This document shows positions 4,992 to 57,278 of a stretch of DNA of 64,000 nt, one piece after another. Position 1 is the first letter of the stretch. The number at the start of each line of letters is the position of its first letter. Source of the stretch: Escherichia coli (GTDB taxonomy: Bacteria; Pseudomonadota; Gammaproteobacteria; Enterobacterales; Enterobacteriaceae); assembly GCF_024223415.1 (NCBI RefSeq), contig NZ_CP100500.1; one strand, written 5' to 3'. Made by a program: the position numbers and the translations under genes. Below the pieces are notes generated by a model, which had not been told where the DNA came from, did not search any database, and saw only the letters and a list, made by a program, of their open reading frames with translations.

Positions 4992-6383
4992 ATGCTGGCT
5001 TTCTTAAACCAGGTTCGCAAGCCGACCCTGGACCTTCCGCTCGAAGTGCGGCGCAAAATGTGGTTCAAACCGTTCATGCAATCCTACCTGGTGGTCTTTA
5101 TCGGCTACCTGACGATGTACCTGATTCGCAAGAACTTTAACATCGCGCAGAACGATATGATTTCGACCTACGGGTTGAGCATGACGCAGCTGGGGATGAT
5201 CGGCCTGGGTTTCTCCATCACTTATGGCGTGGGTAAAACGCTGGTTTCCTACTACGCCGACGGCAAAAACACCAAACAATTCCTGCCGTTCATGCTGATC
5301 CTCTCTGCTATTTGTATGCTGGGCTTCAGTGCCAGTATGGGCAGCGGCTCGGTTAGCCTGTTCCTGATGATTGCCTTCTACGCCTTAAGCGGCTTTTTCC
5401 AGAGTACCGGCGGTTCGTGCAGTTACTCCACCATCACCAAATGGACGCCGCGTCGTAAACGCGGGACATTCCTCGGTTTCTGGAATATTTCTCACAACCT
5501 TGGCGGTGCAGGCGCAGCAGGTGTGGCGCTGTTCGGGGCAAATTACCTGTTCGATGGCCATGTCATCGGCATGTTTATCTTCCCGTCGATTATCGCGCTG
5601 ATTGTCGGTTTTATCGGCCTGCGTTACGGCAGCGACTCCCCGGAATCTTATGGCCTCGGCAAAGCTGAAGAACTGTTCGGCGAGGAGATCAGCGAAGAGG
5701 ACAAAGAGACAGAATCTACCGATATGACCAAGTGGCAGATCTTTGTTGAGTATGTGCTGAAAAACAAAGTGATCTGGCTGCTGTGCTTCGCCAACATTTT
5801 CCTCTATGTGGTACGTATTGGTATCGACCAGTGGTCAACCGTATACGCGTTCCAGGAACTGAAACTCTCTAAAGCGGTGGCGATTCAGGGCTTTACGCTG
5901 TTTGAAGCTGGTGCGCTGGTCGGTACGCTGCTGTGGGGCTGGCTCTCTGACCTGGCGAACGGTCGCCGTGGCCTGGTGGCCTGCATCGCGCTGGCGCTGA
6001 TTATCGCCACGCTCGGTGTGTATCAACATGCCAGTAACGAATATATCTATCTGGCTTCTCTCTTTGCGTTGGGTTTCCTGGTCTTTGGCCCGCAATTGTT
6101 GATTGGTGTGGCTGCTGTTGGCTTTGTACCTAAAAAAGCGATTGGCGCTGCCGATGGTATTAAAGGCACCTTTGCTTACCTGATTGGTGACAGCTTTGCC
6201 AAGTTAGGTCTGGGAATGATTGCCGATGGGACGCCGGTATTCGGCCTTACCGGCTGGGCAGGCACCTTCGCCGCGCTGGATATCGCCGCGATTGGTTGTA
6301 TCTGCCTGATGGCGATAGTGGCGGTAATGGAAGAACGCAAAATCCGCCGCGAGAAAAAAATTCAGCAGTTGACAGTGGCATAA
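4992..6383 (+). CDS. uhpT: Hexose-6-phosphate:phosphate antiporter
   Basis: 463-aa MFS ORF recognised as UhpT; synteny. Confidence 0.94.
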
Positions 6384-6401
6384 ACGTAACTGGTGACTTT
6401 T

Positions 6402-6427
6402 GCCCGGCATGACGCCGGGCTTTTTTT
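6402..6427. terminator. Bidirectional intrinsic terminator between convergent uhpT and ade
   Basis: gcccggc-atgac-gccgggc hairpin followed by a T-run. Confidence 0.7.
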
Positions 6428-6428
6428 A

Positions 6429-8195
6429 TTATTCCGTGACTTCCAGCGTAGTGAAGGCAAACTTCTCGCCATCAAATAGCCCCTGACTGGTTAGTTTTAG
6501 CGCGGGGATCACTGGCAGAGAAAGAAACGCCATCTGAATAAACGGCTCATCGGGTAACGGACCGCATTCACGGGCGGCGGCTTTCAAGGCGTCAATTTGT
6601 TCCGCCAGCGACTGCGCCGTGTCGGTGCTCATCAGCCCGGCAATGGGTAACGGCAGATGACTTTGTACCTGGCCGTTACGTACCACGCACAGCCCGCCGC
6701 CATCCTGAATCACCTGATTGACCGCCAGCGCCATCTCTTCGGCACTGCGACCGATCACCACAATATTATGGCTGTCATGGCTGACCGTCGCAGCCAGCGC
6801 ACCTTCATTCAGTCCAAAGCCGCCAAGCAAACCACAAGCCGGAGCCAGCCGTTGCCCGTAACGCTCAAGTACGGCAATAAAGCTCACATCATCGCGATCA
6901 AAACCATTTTCGCTGTAGACGCTGGAGTGGGAGTGCGTAATCAATTCGTTATGGATGACGTCAATGACCCGATAGCGTTTTCCGGGCGTAAATTGCAGGG
7001 CAAAGTCGCTGGCGGAAACTGGCTGGCGGGCAATGGTGTTGCCATATGGCGGAGCGGATTGTGCCAGTCTCGCCGACTCTTCCGCCTGTAAGGTTTGCGC
7101 ATCAATCGGCTCGCCTTTCACCAGTACCTGCTGCACCGTGACCTTACGCGCATCGCTCAACAGGACGATATCGGCCTGCTTGCCGGGTGCCAGTAAGCCG
7201 AGGTGATTCAGACCAAAGTGGCGCGCCGTCGACCAGCTGGCGACGCGATATGCCACATGCAGCGGCACATTGTGTTGTTCGATCAGGCGGCGAATTAAGG
7301 CATCGATGTGTCCTTCATGGGCGATCTCCCACGGGTTACGGTCATCGGTACAGAGCATGCATTGCGGGCTGTTAAATTCGTTGATCAACGGTGCCAGCGC
7401 GTTGAGATTGCGGGCAGCGGACCCTTCGCGGATCATCAACGACATGCCGAGTTGTAATTTCCGGCGTCCTTCTTCCAGCTGATAACTTTCGTGGCAGTTT
7501 TCAATACCCGCAGTAATATAGGCGTTAAGTTCTTTACCACCCAAACCCGGGCAGTGACCGTCCAGCGTCAGGTGGCGAAATGCATCCAGTTTATCGAGCA
7601 GCGCATTCTGCCCGCTAATTACGCCAGGGTAGTCCATCATTTCTGCAAGGCCGGTAACCTGCGGATGGTCCCGCCAGGCGAGCATCTGTTCAAGGGTAAA
7701 ACTGGCACCGTTAACATCGCAGCCTTCCAGGGCGGGTACGCAAGAGCTGACCTGTAAGTACTGGTTTTGCCTTGCCTGTTCGGCACAGCGGGCAAACCAG
7801 GCGAATCCGGCTTCGCCCATCACGTTGACGATTTCATGAGGGTCGCAAATAACGGTCGTCAGGCCGCGCGGCAGGGTAGCGGTTTCAAAAGTGACCGGCG
7901 TCATCATGCTGGATTCAATATGCAGGTGAGCATCAATAAACCCTGGCACCGCCGTTGCGCCGCGAGCATCAATCCGCTGCAAAGCCGGAGCATCAGTGTA
8001 TTCTGCGCCAACACCGGCAATGTAACGTCCTTTAATCACAATTGGGCCGGAAATTTCTCCGCCATTGATCAGGTCGAGAATAGAGACATTATCAATAATA
8101 TAATCGGCAACAGCGTCGCCACGGGAAACGGCTAACAATTCCTGGTATTCAGCCCGGCTAATGTGATGAAATTTATGGTTAATAGAATTATTCAT
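6429..8195 (-). CDS. ade: Adenine deaminase
   Basis: 588-aa ORF with amidohydrolase metal-binding motifs ([11 protein letters not shown]); K-12 synteny. Confidence 0.92.
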
Positions 8196-8368: not shown

Positions 8369-9703
8369 ATGAATAATGACAATACCGATTACGTGAGTAA
8401 TGAATCAGGGACGCTTTCGCGATTATTTAAACTACCTCAGCATGGGACCACCGTCCGCACAGAATTGATTGCGGGGATGACCACTTTTTTAACCATGGTG
8501 TACATCGTTTTTGTGAACCCGCAAATCCTCGGCGCGGCACAAATGGACCCGAAAGTGGTGTTTGTTACCACCTGTTTGATTGCCGGTATCGGCAGTATTG
8601 CGATGGGGATATTTGCTAACTTACCCGTGGCGCTGGCTCCGGCAATGGGGCTGAACGCCTTCTTTGCCTTCGTGGTCGTGGGGGCGATGGGCATCTCCTG
8701 GCAGACCGGGATGGGCGCAATATTCTGGGGCGCAGTTGGACTATTTTTGCTCACGCTGTTTCGTATCCGGTACTGGATGATCTCCAACATTCCCTTAAGT
8801 TTACGTATTGGTATCACCAGCGGAATTGGATTATTTATCGCCTTAATGGGATTAAAAAATACTGGCGTTATTGTCGCCAATAAAGACACGCTGGTGATGA
8901 TTGGCGATTTAAGTTCTCACGGCGTGTTGTTAGGTATTTTAGGGTTTTTTATTATAACCGTGTTGTCATCACGTCATTTTCATGCCGCGGTGCTGGTTTC
9001 TATTGTGGCGACGTCTTGCTGTGGATTATTTTTCGGTGATGTTCATTTTAGCGGCGTCTATTCCATTCCGCCTGATATTAGCGGCGTCATTGGTGAAGTA
9101 GATTTGAGCGGCGCGTTAACACTTGAACTCGCCGGTATCATTTTCTCCTTTATGCTGATCAACCTATTTGATTCATCAGGAACATTAATTGGTGTAACTG
9201 ATAAAGCGGGCTTAATAGATGGTAACGGTAAATTCCCCAATATGAATAAGGCGCTGTATGTTGATAGCGTCAGTTCGGTGGCGGGTGCGTTTATCGGCAC
9301 CTCGTCTGTTACTGCCTATATTGAAAGTACTTCTGGTGTGGCAGTCGGTGGCCGCACGGGGCTGACTGCGGTTGTGGTTGGCGTTATGTTCCTGTTGGTT
9401 ATGTTCTTCTCACCGCTGGTGGCGATGGTTCCTCCTTACGCAACCGCCGGAGCGTTAATCTTTGTTGGCGTGCTGATGACTTCGAGCCTGGCGCGCGTTA
9501 ACTGGGATGATTTTACCGAATCGGTGCCTGCGTTTATTACCACGGTGATGATGCCCTTTACTTTCTCGATCACCGAAGGGATTGCACTCGGCTTTATGTC
9601 GTACTGCATCATGAAAGTGTGCACCGGGCGCTGGCGCGATCTGAACCTGTGTGTGGTGGTGGTCGCAGCTCTGTTTGCACTGAAGATTATTCTGGTGGAT
9701 TAG
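8369..9703 (+). CDS. adeQ: Adenine permease (NCS2 family)
   Basis: 444-aa multi-TM ORF divergent from ade; nucleobase transporter features; synteny. Confidence 0.87.
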   Translation: MNNDNTDYVSNESGTLSRLFKLPQHGTTVRTELIAGMTTFLTMVYIVFVNPQILGAAQMDPKVVFVTTCLIAGIGSIAMGIFANLPVALAPAMGLNAFFAFVVVGAMGISWQTGMGAIFWGAVGLFLLTLFRIRYWMISNIPLSLRIGITSGIGLFIALMGLKNTGVIVANKDTLVMIGDLSSHGVLLGILGFFIITVLSSRHFHAAVLVSIVATSCCGLFFGDVHFSGVYSIPPDISGVIGEVDLSGALTLELAGIIFSFMLINLFDSSGTLIGVTDKAGLIDGNGKFPNMNKALYVDSVSSVAGAFIGTSSVTAYIESTSGVAVGGRTGLTAVVVGVMFLLVMFFSPLVAMVPPYATAGALIFVGVLMTSSLARVNWDDFTESVPAFITTVMMPFTFSITEGIALGFMSYCIMKVCTGRWRDLNLCVVVVAALFALKIILVD

Positions 9704-9755
9704 TAACTGGCGAGGGTTTCCAGATATCATGAGTTCTGATTACGCAGGAGAACTC

Positions 9756-10208
9756 ATGATCTGGATAATGCTCGCCACGCTGGCAGTGGTGTTTGTGGTT
9801 GGTTTTCGGGTGCTGACATCCGGGGCCAGAAAAGCGATTCGCCGTCTCAGCGATCGGCTGAATATCGATGTCATACCCGTGGAGTCGATGGTCGATCAAA
9901 TGGGAAAGTCAGCCGGTGACGAATTTTTACGTTATTTGCATCGTCCGGATGAGTCGCACCTGCAAAACGCCGCGCAGGTGTTGCTCATCTGGCAAATTGT
10001 CATTGTCGATGGTAGCGAACAGAACCTGCTGCAATGGCATCGGATTTTACAAAAAGCCCGTCTTGCCGCGCCGATTACCGATGCTCAGGTCAGGCTGGCG
10101 CTGGGGTTTCTGCGCGAAACCGAACCTGAAATGCAGGATATTAATGCTTTTCAGATGCGCTATAACGCGTTCTTTCAGCCTGCCGAGGGCGTTCACTGGC
10201 TGCATTAA
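9756..10208 (+). CDS. yicN: Conserved membrane-associated protein YicN (alternative start at 9729)
   Basis: ORF with N-terminal hydrophobic segment MIWIMLATLAVVFVVGF; K-12 synteny. Confidence 0.7.
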   Translation: MIWIMLATLAVVFVVGFRVLTSGARKAIRRLSDRLNIDVIPVESMVDQMGKSAGDEFLRYLHRPDESHLQNAAQVLLIWQIVIVDGSEQNLLQWHRILQKARLAAPITDAQVRLALGFLRETEPEMQDINAFQMRYNAFFQPAEGVHWLH

Positions 10209-10418
10209 AACCGCTTCGTCTTATCAGCCTACAGACCGCGCCTGACCTGTCGGGTGGATAAGACGTTCACGCCGCATCCGGTAATCTTTGCCCTGTTCCG
10301 TTTCGATCTTAACTCCAGCTCAAGCAACACCGTAAAAGTTGCAAAAACGTTAAATGCGTCACACATTTCAATGTTAAAGTGGTCGGCTTTTCCCCTGAAA
10401 CATGCCACGGGTAACACC

Positions 10419-11609
10419 ATGAGTGAATTTATTGCCGAAAACCGCGGCGCGGATGCCATCACCCGACCGAACTGGTCAGCCGTTTTCTCGGTGGCGTTTT
10501 GTGTCGCCTGTCTGATTATCGTTGAGTTTTTGCCCGTCAGTTTGTTGACGCCAATGGCCCAGGATTTAGGCATTTCGGAAGGGGTTGCCGGGCAATCGGT
10601 GACCGTGACCGCCTTTGTGGCAATGTTTGCCAGTTTGTTTATTACCCAGACAATTCAGGCTACTGACCGCCGCTACGTTGTTATTTTGTTTGCCGTTTTG
10701 CTGACGCTCTCCTGCTTGCTGGTTTCCTTTGCTAACTCATTCAGTTTGCTTTTAATCGGTCGTGCCTGTCTGGGGCTGGCGCTGGGCGGGTTCTGGGCGA
10801 TGTCGGCGTCGCTGACCATGCGTCTGGTGCCGCCGCGTACGGTGCCGAAGGCGCTGTCGGTGATCTTCGGCGCGGTTTCTATTGCGCTGGTGATTGCCGC
10901 GCCGTTGGGCAGTTTTTTAGGCGAGCTTATCGGTTGGCGCAATGTCTTTAATGCGGCGGCGGTGATGGGCGTGCTGTGTATTTTCTGGATTATCAAATCA
11001 TTGCCTTCACTGCCAGGCGAACCCTCGCATCAGAAACAAAATACTTTCCGCTTATTACAACGTCCGGGTGTGATGGCAGGGATGATCGCCATCTTCATGT
11101 CTTTCGCCGGGCAGTTTGCTTTCTTCACGTATATTCGCCCGGTGTATATGAACCTGGCGGGATTCGGCGTGGATGGCTTAACGCTGGTGCTGTTGAGTTT
11201 TGGTATCGCCAGCTTTATTGGTACGTCGCTTTCGTCGTTCATTCTTAAACGTTCGGTAAAACTGGCCTTAGCAGGCGCGCCGTTAATACTGGCTGTGAGT
11301 GCGTTGGTACTGACGTTGTGGGGAAGCGATAAAATCATTGCTACCGGCGTGGCGATTATCTGGGGGCTAACTTTTGCATTGGTTCCCGTCGGCTGGTCAA
11401 CGTGGATCACCCGCTCGCTGGCCGATCAGGCAGAAAAAGCCGGGTCTATTCAGGTGGCGGTTATTCAGCTTGCTAATACCTGTGGCGCGGCAATCGGCGG
11501 TTATGCGCTGGATAATATTGGTCTGACTTCGCCGTTGATGTTGTCCGGCACATTGATGTTGCTGACTGCATTGTTGGTTACTGCAAAGGTGAAAATGAAG
11601 AAATCCTGA
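10419..11609 (+). CDS. nepI: Purine ribonucleoside efflux MFS transporter
   Basis: Start [12 protein letters not shown] inside ORF 10254..11609; 12-TM MFS; synteny. Confidence 0.87.
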
Positions 11610-18905: not shown

Positions 18906-19382
18906 TTAAAGCAGACCGTGTTCCGCAAAGGAGAAAACCTGGCTGCCACCGATTATCAGATGGTCCGGCACCCGGATATCCACCAGGGCCAGTGCCTGTA
19001 CCAGACGTTCCGTAATAAGGCGGTCTGCCTTGCTGGGTGTGACTTCACCTGACGGGTGATTGTGTGCCAGCACCACGGCAGCGGCATTGTGATACAGGGC
19101 GCGTTTAATCACTTCCCGGGGATGGACTTCCGTGCGGTTGATGGTGCCGGTGAAGAGGGTTTCACCGGCAATCAGCTGATTCTGGTTATTCAGATACAGC
19201 ACCCGGAACTCTTCACGCTCCAGTCCCGCCATGTTCAGAATCAGCCATTCCCGTGCCGCACGGGTGGAGGTGAAGGCCACACCGGGTTCATGAAGATGGC
19301 GGTCCAGGGTTTTCAGAGCCCGCAGAATGAGACTGCGCTCGCCGGGCGTCATTTCTCCGGGCAGAAAGGAAAGCTGCTGCAT
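18906..19382 (-). CDS. RadC-like JAB-domain protein (YeeS/YfjY family)
   Basis: Start MQQLSFLPGE; HNHPSG metalloprotease-like motif. Confidence 0.85.
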   Translation of the reverse strand: MQQLSFLPGEMTPGERSLILRALKTLDRHLHEPGVAFTSTRAAREWLILNMAGLEREEFRVLYLNNQNQLIAGETLFTGTINRTEVHPREVIKRALYHNAAAVVLAHNHPSGEVTPSKADRLITERLVQALALVDIRVPDHLIIGGSQVFSFAEHGLL

Positions 19383-35336: not shown

Positions 35337-35657
35337 CCGGTGAGCAGTTTTTCTCCATTATGCTTCAGACTTAGATGATTGATTATTATGGGGATTTCAT
35401 CACCGATATTCAGATGTATGAATATCGGTGATGAACTAAAGCTCAGGAGCTGCGTGGTGGTGATGAATCAACAGGCATATAACTGATACCCGCCGGTCAG
35501 AAGTTCCAGCCTGCGACTTTCCTGTCTGCGTGCCCGCAGTCCGGCGTTCAGGTGCAGCGTGTGACAGAACGCACGGAGAGCGAAACGGCAGGCAGACAGG
35601 CCGTTCAGTCAGCCCTGGCACCCTGCCCGGATACCAGCTTCCCTGAAACAACTGGCA

Positions 35658-46196: not shown

Positions 46197-46342
46197 CGAA
46201 GCCATAGCATAGAATTTTTAATGGCATTATGATCAGGACATAAAGGACTTCATGCAGGGAAAAAATATCCCAAAAGAAACTGGTCATGTCAGCACACCAA
46301 AGGATCCTCGCCGGATCCTTTGGTTTTTCTCAGCCACAATCG

Positions 46343-56681: not shown

Positions 56682-57278
56682 GTTGGAGTCATTACCAACG
56701 GTAAATATCCATAAGTGTGGGCTTGCGGAATAAATAGTTTGGTTAAAGATAAGGTGGTTTAATACTGCTGAGTATTTTATAGGAGATATGATGTTGTTTT
56801 ATAAACAAACTAAAAAACATGAAGTTTAATTGATAGGGGACAATGAAATCTCCTTTTTAAACTCAATTGCTATGTTGGGTTTATGGGGTTGCTATAAACG
56901 GTTTTGAATAAACGCTTTACTATTCTCATGAAAACAGTGTTATGTTGTTATTTTAACAACCCCGCATTGTTTTTTGATGGGATGGGTATTAAGACTTTAG
57001 AGAAACTTTATAAATAAATATATGTATTCAATAGTGGCGAAAATAATAACCCATCTTATTATTACATTGTGGAAGTGCTCTTTTTTATTATCGCTCATGT
57101 TTTACCTTTCTGTTAAAACATATTCTTTCGGATATGTAAAATGGTAAGAGATAGTTAATCTACGTATGCATGGGGGCGTTTCATTGCATGGCGTTATAAT
57201 CTGGCTTGTATATAAAGGCACTATAAGTTTTACTCTTACAGTGCCTTTATTTGGCCATGATTTACCCTCTACAATAAA

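Follow-up and report, generated by a model that had tools for sequence, protein, structure and literature searches.

A stable hairpin over the yicN translation start that may insulate the gene from adeQ read-through in Escherichia coli

At the junction of adeQ and yicN in Escherichia coli, a real and non-random hairpin spans the translation initiation region of yicN, and its 5' arm appears, from sequence comparison, to be the -10 box and discriminator of an ancient yicN promoter. We tentatively favor the reading, to which we give slightly less than an even chance, that this hairpin sequesters the yicN initiation region and forms only on transcripts that enter from adeQ. Hairpins that sequester an initiation region are a known kind of element; the distinguishing feature here is a 5' arm that coincides with the gene's own putative promoter, and this points to insulation from read-through.

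Description

The stretch of E. coli DNA analyzed here (contig NZ_CP100500.1; 64,000 nt, "the window") contains adeD (- strand, 6429-8195), adeQ (+, 8369-9703), yicN (+) and nepI (+) in that order. The adeQ stop codon, TAG, is at 9701-9703 (+), where the open reading frame 8369-9703 and the RefSeq adeQ annotation both end, and the yicN coding sequence (9756-10208, +) encodes a 150-aa DUF1198 protein with a single membrane span, as defined by the RefSeq start, the Pfam profile, orthologues and UniProt numbering. The two genes are separated by 52 nt that hold no terminator. The junction is a chromosomal one with conserved synteny and not the end of a mobile element next to a transposase gene. Little has been published on YicN, a membrane protein found to co-purify with SecYEG, and literature text searches (yicN, b3663, DUF1198) found no study of its regulation. 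Upstream, adeD has been described as cryptic and silenced by H-NS. By coordinate conversion from the K-12 annotation, the small RNA UhpU, which derives from the 3' end of uhpT, maps to about 6163-6428 (+), abutting the stop of the convergent adeD gene.

A second genome, NZ_CP025851.1 (2413937-2477936), is identical to the window around yicN and not colinear with it across the full 64 kb, and was used only as a local set of gene starts. The window strain differs from it in an island and an IS-rich region beyond yicS.

Hairpin structure and stability

The original prediction described a 10-bp inverted repeat, catgagttct (9728-9737) and agaactcatg (9749-9758) with 11 nt between them, and the sequence is exactly so; the perfect repeat is in fact longer than first noted, with 12 bp (9726-9737 and 9749-9760) around the 11-nt loop. 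Its 5' arm, ATCATGAGTTCT (9726-9737, +), consists of the last 5 nt of the -10 box and the discriminator. The loop, GATTACGCAGG (9738-9748, +), includes AGG, the first three bases of the Shine-Dalgarno sequence, and would provide the first bases of a transcript from the yicN promoter, while the 3' arm, AGAACTCATGAT (9749-9760, +), begins with the final 2 nt of the Shine-Dalgarno sequence, continues through the spacer and AUG, and ends 2 nt past the start codon. The Shine-Dalgarno sequence itself, AGGAG (9746-9750, +), lies 5 nt before the AUG within a conserved GGAGAA block and is thus split, with AGG in the loop and AG in the stem. Both the MFE and the centroid structures extend the repeat into an imperfect hairpin of about 70 nt (9708-9777, +), the base of which is 5 nt downstream of the adeQ stop, and which is built of three stacked stems (9708-9714/9771-9777, 9716-9724/9760-9769 and 9727-9737/9749-9759).

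Predicted folding is strong, not weak: -21.9 kcal/mol for the 47-nt core (z = -5.4; none of 200 shuffles equal to it) and -39.9 kcal/mol for the 75-nt fold at 9706-9780 (z about -7.9). The latter ranks second among the 25,570 75-nt windows taken from both strands of the 64-kb window. The raw energy of the 47-nt core falls in the top 0.24% and is not unique, with about 40-70 other loci of the window comparably stable (72 at a cut-off of -21.0). Perfect inverted repeats of at least 12 bp with loops of 3-20 nt number five in the window, compared with 0.04 per dinucleotide shuffle. The hairpin therefore has the two properties of a generic hairpin that sequesters an initiation region, namely stability beyond composition (z = -5.4 and -7.9) and placement over that region.

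Several other repeats and folds were seen in the same scans. Perfect inverted repeats of at least 10 bp with short loops number nine in the window (0.97 expected); further perfect repeats of 10-17 bp lie at 31411-31438, 31593-31636, 46296-46324, 19145-19170, 32741-32781 and 57212-57250, and the longest, of 17 bp, is at 35396-35435. Inside yicN, an imperfect 19-nt inverted repeat at 9945-9992 (+), CCGGATGAGTCGCACCTGC / GCAGGTGTTGCTCATCTGG, is 79% complementary and gives the second most stable 47-nt fold of the window (-27.2 kcal/mol). Two nepI coding stretches, 10841-10915 and 10766-10840 (+), fold at -40.6 and -39.6 kcal/mol and are both among the top three 75-nt folds, probably as an effect of G+C content.

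The original prediction had also called the structure terminator-like. A stable stem-loop after a stop codon would suit an intrinsic (Rho-independent) terminator of adeQ. Only 4 of the 12 core pairs are G-C, however, the loop is 11 nt long, the sequence 3' of the stem (9761-9770, CTGGATAATG) has no T-run, the stem includes the yicN start codon, and a terminator scan calls nothing here, so that we regard this identity as barely credible. A search of Rfam 15 with 9700-9780 gave no match even at E-values up to 10. A REP, BIME or MITE repeat was considered and rejected, since the sequence occurs at a median of one place per E. coli genome (11-base word search, E-value up to 10). Past the yicN stop, the gap between yicN and nepI does contain a REP-like palindromic sequence (10215-10295, +), within which 10252-10292 gives a weak, sub-threshold Rfam match to naRNA4 (20 bits, against a gathering score of 59.5).

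Occlusion of translation initiation

Of the initiation region, the stem takes in everything from the AG of the Shine-Dalgarno sequence through the spacer to the AUG and beyond. In-silico equilibrium folds, which ignore ribosomes on adeQ and co-transcriptional folding, put the cost of forcing 9746-9758 single-stranded at 16.2 kcal/mol in RNA that carries the upstream sequence, and at 29 kcal/mol when the whole interval from -15 to +15 is forced open in the same RNA. By this measure yicN ranks first in occlusion among 43 annotated gene starts from the local region of NZ_CP025851.1, for which the median opening cost is 5.2 kcal/mol. When the RNA is made to start at 9737, and so lacks the 5' arm, the cost drops to 2.8 kcal/mol (about 2.3-3.7 for starts at 9737-9739). 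Occlusion of initiation, one of the two roles first suggested for the repeat, is thus the natural prediction for a strong hairpin that buries the start codon, the spacer and part of the Shine-Dalgarno sequence.

Such values also suit a simpler, constitutive form of control, in which the adeQ promoter is the only one, the -10 box is a dead relic, the hairpin is present on all yicN mRNA, and YicN is kept low; within this account, ribosomes that terminate at the adeQ stop would perhaps melt the outer stem and give weak translational coupling. The very high opening cost, the missing terminator between adeQ and yicN, the poor -35 element in E. coli and the distance of only 5 nt from the adeQ stop to the helix base all speak for constitutive down-tuning. 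Against it, ribosomes terminating at adeQ would disturb no more than the outer 7-bp stem, and the inner stems contribute -21.9 kcal/mol on their own; YicN is detectable in laboratory cultures even though adeD is described as cryptic and H-NS-silenced; and, as set out below, both the -10 hexamer and its spacing from the ATG are conserved. We consider it unlikely, while rating it above the other alternatives to insulation.

The yicN start codon

The repeat had been described as spanning two candidate start codons, the in-frame ATGs at 9729 and 9756. Only the second is supported, and the true start of yicN is the ATG at 9756-9758: RefSeq and UniProt numbering place the start there, position 1 of the Pfam DUF1198 profile aligns to its Met, and all 56 orthologues, taken from species-representative genomes, begin their alignment at the first residue of the 150-aa form (MIWIM or MVWIM). 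The upstream in-frame ATG (9729-9731, +) has its nearest Shine-Dalgarno-like sequence, GAGGG, 12 nt away. In Escherichia sp. MOD1-EC7003 (L006) it is ATA, together with a compensating C9755T. In the Leclercia group the upstream ATG is followed by in-frame stops (L034, L035, L037) or is out of frame (L038, L039). Use of the 9729 ATG as a start, or as the beginning of an N-terminal extension, is therefore excluded by the database starts, the profile, the orthologues and the ATA codon.

The two ATGs lie one in each arm, in frame and 27 nt apart. An ATG occurs in the 5' arm because CATG is self-complementary and the 3' arm carries cATG; the in-frame spacing of 27 nt is the sole part left to chance. 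One practical gain of the analysis is that the yicN start codon is settled at 9756.

Conservation and covariation

Absence of the repeat from other E. coli had been named as a possible weakness of the original prediction, and it is present in essentially all of them. Of 5,401 E. coli genomes, 5,261 (97%) carry the identical 47-nt core, and 129 of the 140 variant genomes share the IAI39 haplotype, in which the sole change is C9728T (C-G to U.G). The interval 9700-9785 matches the window in 96% of the 5,401 genomes; the adeD-adeQ intergenic region does so in 91%, adjacent adeQ coding sequence in 46% and adjacent yicN coding sequence in 26%. The non-coding block GTTTCCAGATATCATGAG shows no change among 15 adeQ-linked sequences from Escherichia and Citrobacter, and the flanking non-coding bases vary. 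No stem substitution that was seen abolishes pairing: wobble pairs result from C9728T, C9711T and C9776T, and the combination of G9731A with C9755T is compensatory (the change that also removes the upstream ATG in MOD1-EC7003).

Covariation within the adeQ-linked clade does not rise above shuffles (two pairs changed on both sides, with 46-61 of 500 shuffles as high); 11 of the 27 helix pairs never vary in this clade, and both sides of the helix are for the most part unchanged. The 3' side must preserve codons and the Shine-Dalgarno sequence; promoter function by itself could account for the constancy of the 5' side. The strong hairpin is confined to E. coli proper, with weaker folds of -20 to -26 kcal/mol in sister Escherichia and in C. 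amalonaticus.

These last observations give some room to the view that the hairpin has no selected function, its complementarity being partly a by-product of a TATCAT box near a CATGAT start region and otherwise drift in E. coli. The lack of significant covariation and the loss of inner pairs in sister species fit this view, as does the occurrence of the same ATCATG/CATGAT pairing in the Leclercia group, where a terminator or a divergent gene precedes the promoter and the full structure does not reach significance. Drift, on the other hand, sits poorly with the second rank of the 75-nt hairpin, with three separate stems that are all complementary, with near-invariance in E. coli relative to neighboring sequence, with the retention of pairing in every observed stem variant, and with an analogous hairpin of different sequence in Enterobacter sp. 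kpr-6 (below). We judge it improbable that the structure is without function.

A conserved -10 box in the 5' arm

The hexamer TATCAT (9725-9730, +), which overlaps the 5' arm, has 5 of 6 matches to a -10 element and corresponds to the -10 of the yicN promoter in other genera. In 45 of 57 loci from about ten genera (Escherichia, Citrobacter, Leclercia, Silvania, Lelliottia, Huaxiibacter, Klebsiella indica, Pseudocitrobacter, Pantoea and Shimwellia), TAT[CG]AT stands 24-29 nt before the yicN ATG, and the hexamer is invariant across all adeQ-linked genomes. In genera that have no adeD-adeQ, uhpT is followed by an intrinsic terminator and, about 60 nt on, by yicN. Directly after the uhpT terminator in two such loci (L026, L046), the scan calls a sigma-70-type promoter, TCGACA-16-TATGAT, with 10 of 12 matches; the Silvania promoter in the same gap is TTGACG-15-TATCAT. 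Matches to the -35 element number 4-5 of 6 in loci with no adeQ upstream, versus 3 of 6 where adeQ abuts (4 of 6 in MOD1-EC7003). E. coli keeps the -10 box and the adjacent spacer; the adeQ stop occupies the former -35 position, the best remaining -35 has 3 of 6 matches, and a consensus promoter scan calls no promoter at the E. coli junction.

From the geometry of the -10 box, a yicN-specific transcription start is predicted about 7 nt past it, at 9737-9739 (+), equivalent to about 3842420 on the minus strand of NC_000913.3; a literature search found no mapped transcription start near 9738. A transcript from this box would begin at about 9737-9739 and would therefore lack the 5' arm.

Two Citrobacter genomes bear on the age of the junction. 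In Citrobacter sp. NCU1 (L015) and Awk 4 (L016), adeD and most of adeQ are deleted and only the last ~30 nt of adeQ (…attctggtggattag) are left upstream of yicN (at ~2420-2450), with the 5' arm of the hairpin kept. This remnant indicates that the adeQ junction is old and that adeDQ was deleted later in these genomes. The read-through-specific opening cost in Awk 4 is still large (13.1 versus 2.6 kcal/mol). In Pantoea (L048-L056), an inverted repeat, CCTGCA-N13-TGCAGG, brackets the TATGAT -10 box at about -50 to -25 from the yicN ATG, which could be an operator or a coincidence.

The coincidence of the 5' arm with the -10 box also bears on two further readings. One is that the helix, about 27 bp with interruptions, is cut by RNase III or blocks 3' exonucleases, separating or stabilizing adeQ mRNA and inactivating the yicN message. 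Interrupted helices of this shape and length resemble RNase III substrates, and the position immediately after a coding sequence is appropriate. This role leaves the overlap with the -10 box unexplained, and we hold it to be a minor candidate with a low probability. Neither adeQ nor yicN has an entry in the 3'-end tables of Adams et al., and a literature search turned up no mapped RNase III site for this junction.

The other is that the element acts as DNA, a palindrome bound by a dimeric regulator and overlapping the yicN promoter and start codon. That a perfect palindrome lies over the -10 box, and that the promoter spacer (TTTCC-GA) is unusually conserved, would suit an operator. Half-sites of 12 bp with centers 23 bp apart are atypical for operators, however; no second copy or related site is found in E. 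coli genomes; changes of the G.U type (C9728T and others) keep the RNA helix and break the DNA symmetry; and the kpr-6 analogue keeps the pairing, not the sequence. An operator is accordingly very unlikely in our estimate.

Comparison across lineages

In Enterobacter sp. kpr-6 (L043), a co-directional DUF4432 gene stops 66 nt short of yicN, the gap holds no terminator, and the junction is predicted to form a long hairpin of the same architecture and different sequence (-36.6 kcal/mol, z = -4.5). Here too the -10 box and discriminator form the strand opposite the Shine-Dalgarno spacer and AUG, and an outer stem joins upstream sequence to the Leu-Ala-Thr codons. Two spacer/discriminator pairs are changed on both sides, from U-A in E. 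coli to C-G or G-C in kpr-6, and the outer stem is CGUCGCC/GGCGACG in kpr-6 versus UGGCGAG/CUCGCCA in E. coli.

To compare lineages, the read-through-specific extra opening cost was taken as the cost in read-through RNA minus that in RNA from the predicted own start, with the upstream context curated by hand, as automatic classification was noisy from shadow ORFs. Three lineages in which the upstream gene is co-directional and unterminated have mean extra costs of 6.8, 8.4 and 4.1 kcal/mol; in four lineages with a terminator or divergent gene upstream the means are 0.4, 3.5, -0.1 and 2.1 kcal/mol. This separation of three against four independent lineages is suggestive only. Citrobacter sp. 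MGH106 (L029) has no read-through-specific effect.

A different, small hairpin is present in the 5' UTR of the Citrobacter freundii group (L023-L032, L044), at about -35 to -5 of the yicN ATG. It consists of GCGUCC/GCAUCC-N9-11-GGAUGU, pairs a Shine-Dalgarno-like GGAUG, shows G.U to A-U changes between species, and would also be carried on yicN's own transcripts.

Proposed mechanism and significance

In the insulation model that we favor, polymerase starting at the -10 box (at about 9738) would make an mRNA without the 5' arm, leaving the ribosome-binding site open to translation, and RNA reading through from adeQ would contain both arms, fold, and be translationally silent for yicN. That occlusion depends on the 5' arm follows from the predicted opening costs, 16.2 kcal/mol for read-through RNA and 2.8 kcal/mol for RNA starting at 9737. 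YicN protein has been detected in laboratory E. coli, which indirectly fits a promoter that is independent of adeQ. Untranslated yicN RNA might in addition be prone to Rho-dependent termination before nepI, an indirect terminator-like effect.

As to origin, adeD-adeQ would have come between the uhpT terminator and yicN, so that transcriptional insulation was lost and the promoter region became part of an RNA; the pre-existing complementarity would then have been extended, most strongly in E. coli proper. A broader claim, that a chromosomal housekeeping gene recruited its core promoter to form the 5' arm of an insulator acting on translation, and that this evolved at least twice with different sequences after rearrangement had put an unterminated gene upstream (adeQ in one case, the DUF4432 gene in the other), is possible but doubtful.

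If that claim is true, it would be a natural, non-transposon case of the fold-back insulation known from IS10, and possibly a general signature of new gene junctions. A correct insulation model would provide a clear chromosomal example of protection from read-through, a design so far documented mainly for insertion sequences, and would show how control can be restored once a rearrangement has taken away a terminator. It would also supply a search rule for similar junctions, a -10 box complementary to the downstream ribosome-binding site, and would mean that yicN expression is not to be inferred from co-transcription of adeQ and yicN. The biological stakes are modest, since YicN is little studied.

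Comparison with known systems

Like a Rho-independent terminator, the yicN hairpin is a stem-loop soon after a stop codon; unlike one, it has an A+U-rich stem, an 11-nt loop and no U-tract, and it overlaps the next start codon. Intercistronic hairpins, including REP stabilizers and the long-range pairing between the coat and replicase genes of MS2, set differential expression within operons. The yicN hairpin resembles these as a stable structure at a gene junction that is predicted to lower the downstream cistron, and it differs from REP/BIME elements in being single-copy. Coupling of the MS2 type is unlikely, because an upstream ribosome would reach only the outer stem.

Insertion sequences offer further parallels. 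In the tnpA gene of IS200, a cis hairpin in the 5' UTR hides the Shine-Dalgarno sequence (PMC4513863), as the yicN hairpin, also in cis, hides its ribosome-binding site. The IS200 hairpin lies within the 5' UTR and is thus on all tnpA transcripts, and read-through into IS200 is handled by a separate terminator. For IS10 and IS50, Davis, Simons and Kleckner in 1985 and Schulz and Reznikoff in 1991 reportedly compared read-through transcripts with those from the resident promoter, and only the read-through transcripts are said to fold and go untranslated. As in this fold-back inhibition, the 3' arm of the yicN inverted repeat covers the ribosome-binding site and the AUG, here from the last two Shine-Dalgarno bases through the spacer and start codon. 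A recent preprint also cites the sequestering of translation-initiation signals in IS10 and IS50 (bioRxiv 10.1101/2025.01.24.634351). The 5' arm of IS10 and IS50 holds the resident promoter, and that of yicN holds a conserved -10 box, with a -35 that is weak in E. coli and a start that is predicted. Read-through RNA of IS10 and IS50 is translated much less than RNA from the resident promoter, and a corresponding effect at yicN is predicted from opening costs (16.2 versus 2.8 kcal/mol). Unlike IS10 and IS50, yicN is a chromosomal gene for a membrane protein and not a transposase gene at the end of an insertion sequence, and its hairpin is longer, with about 27 bp in three stems.
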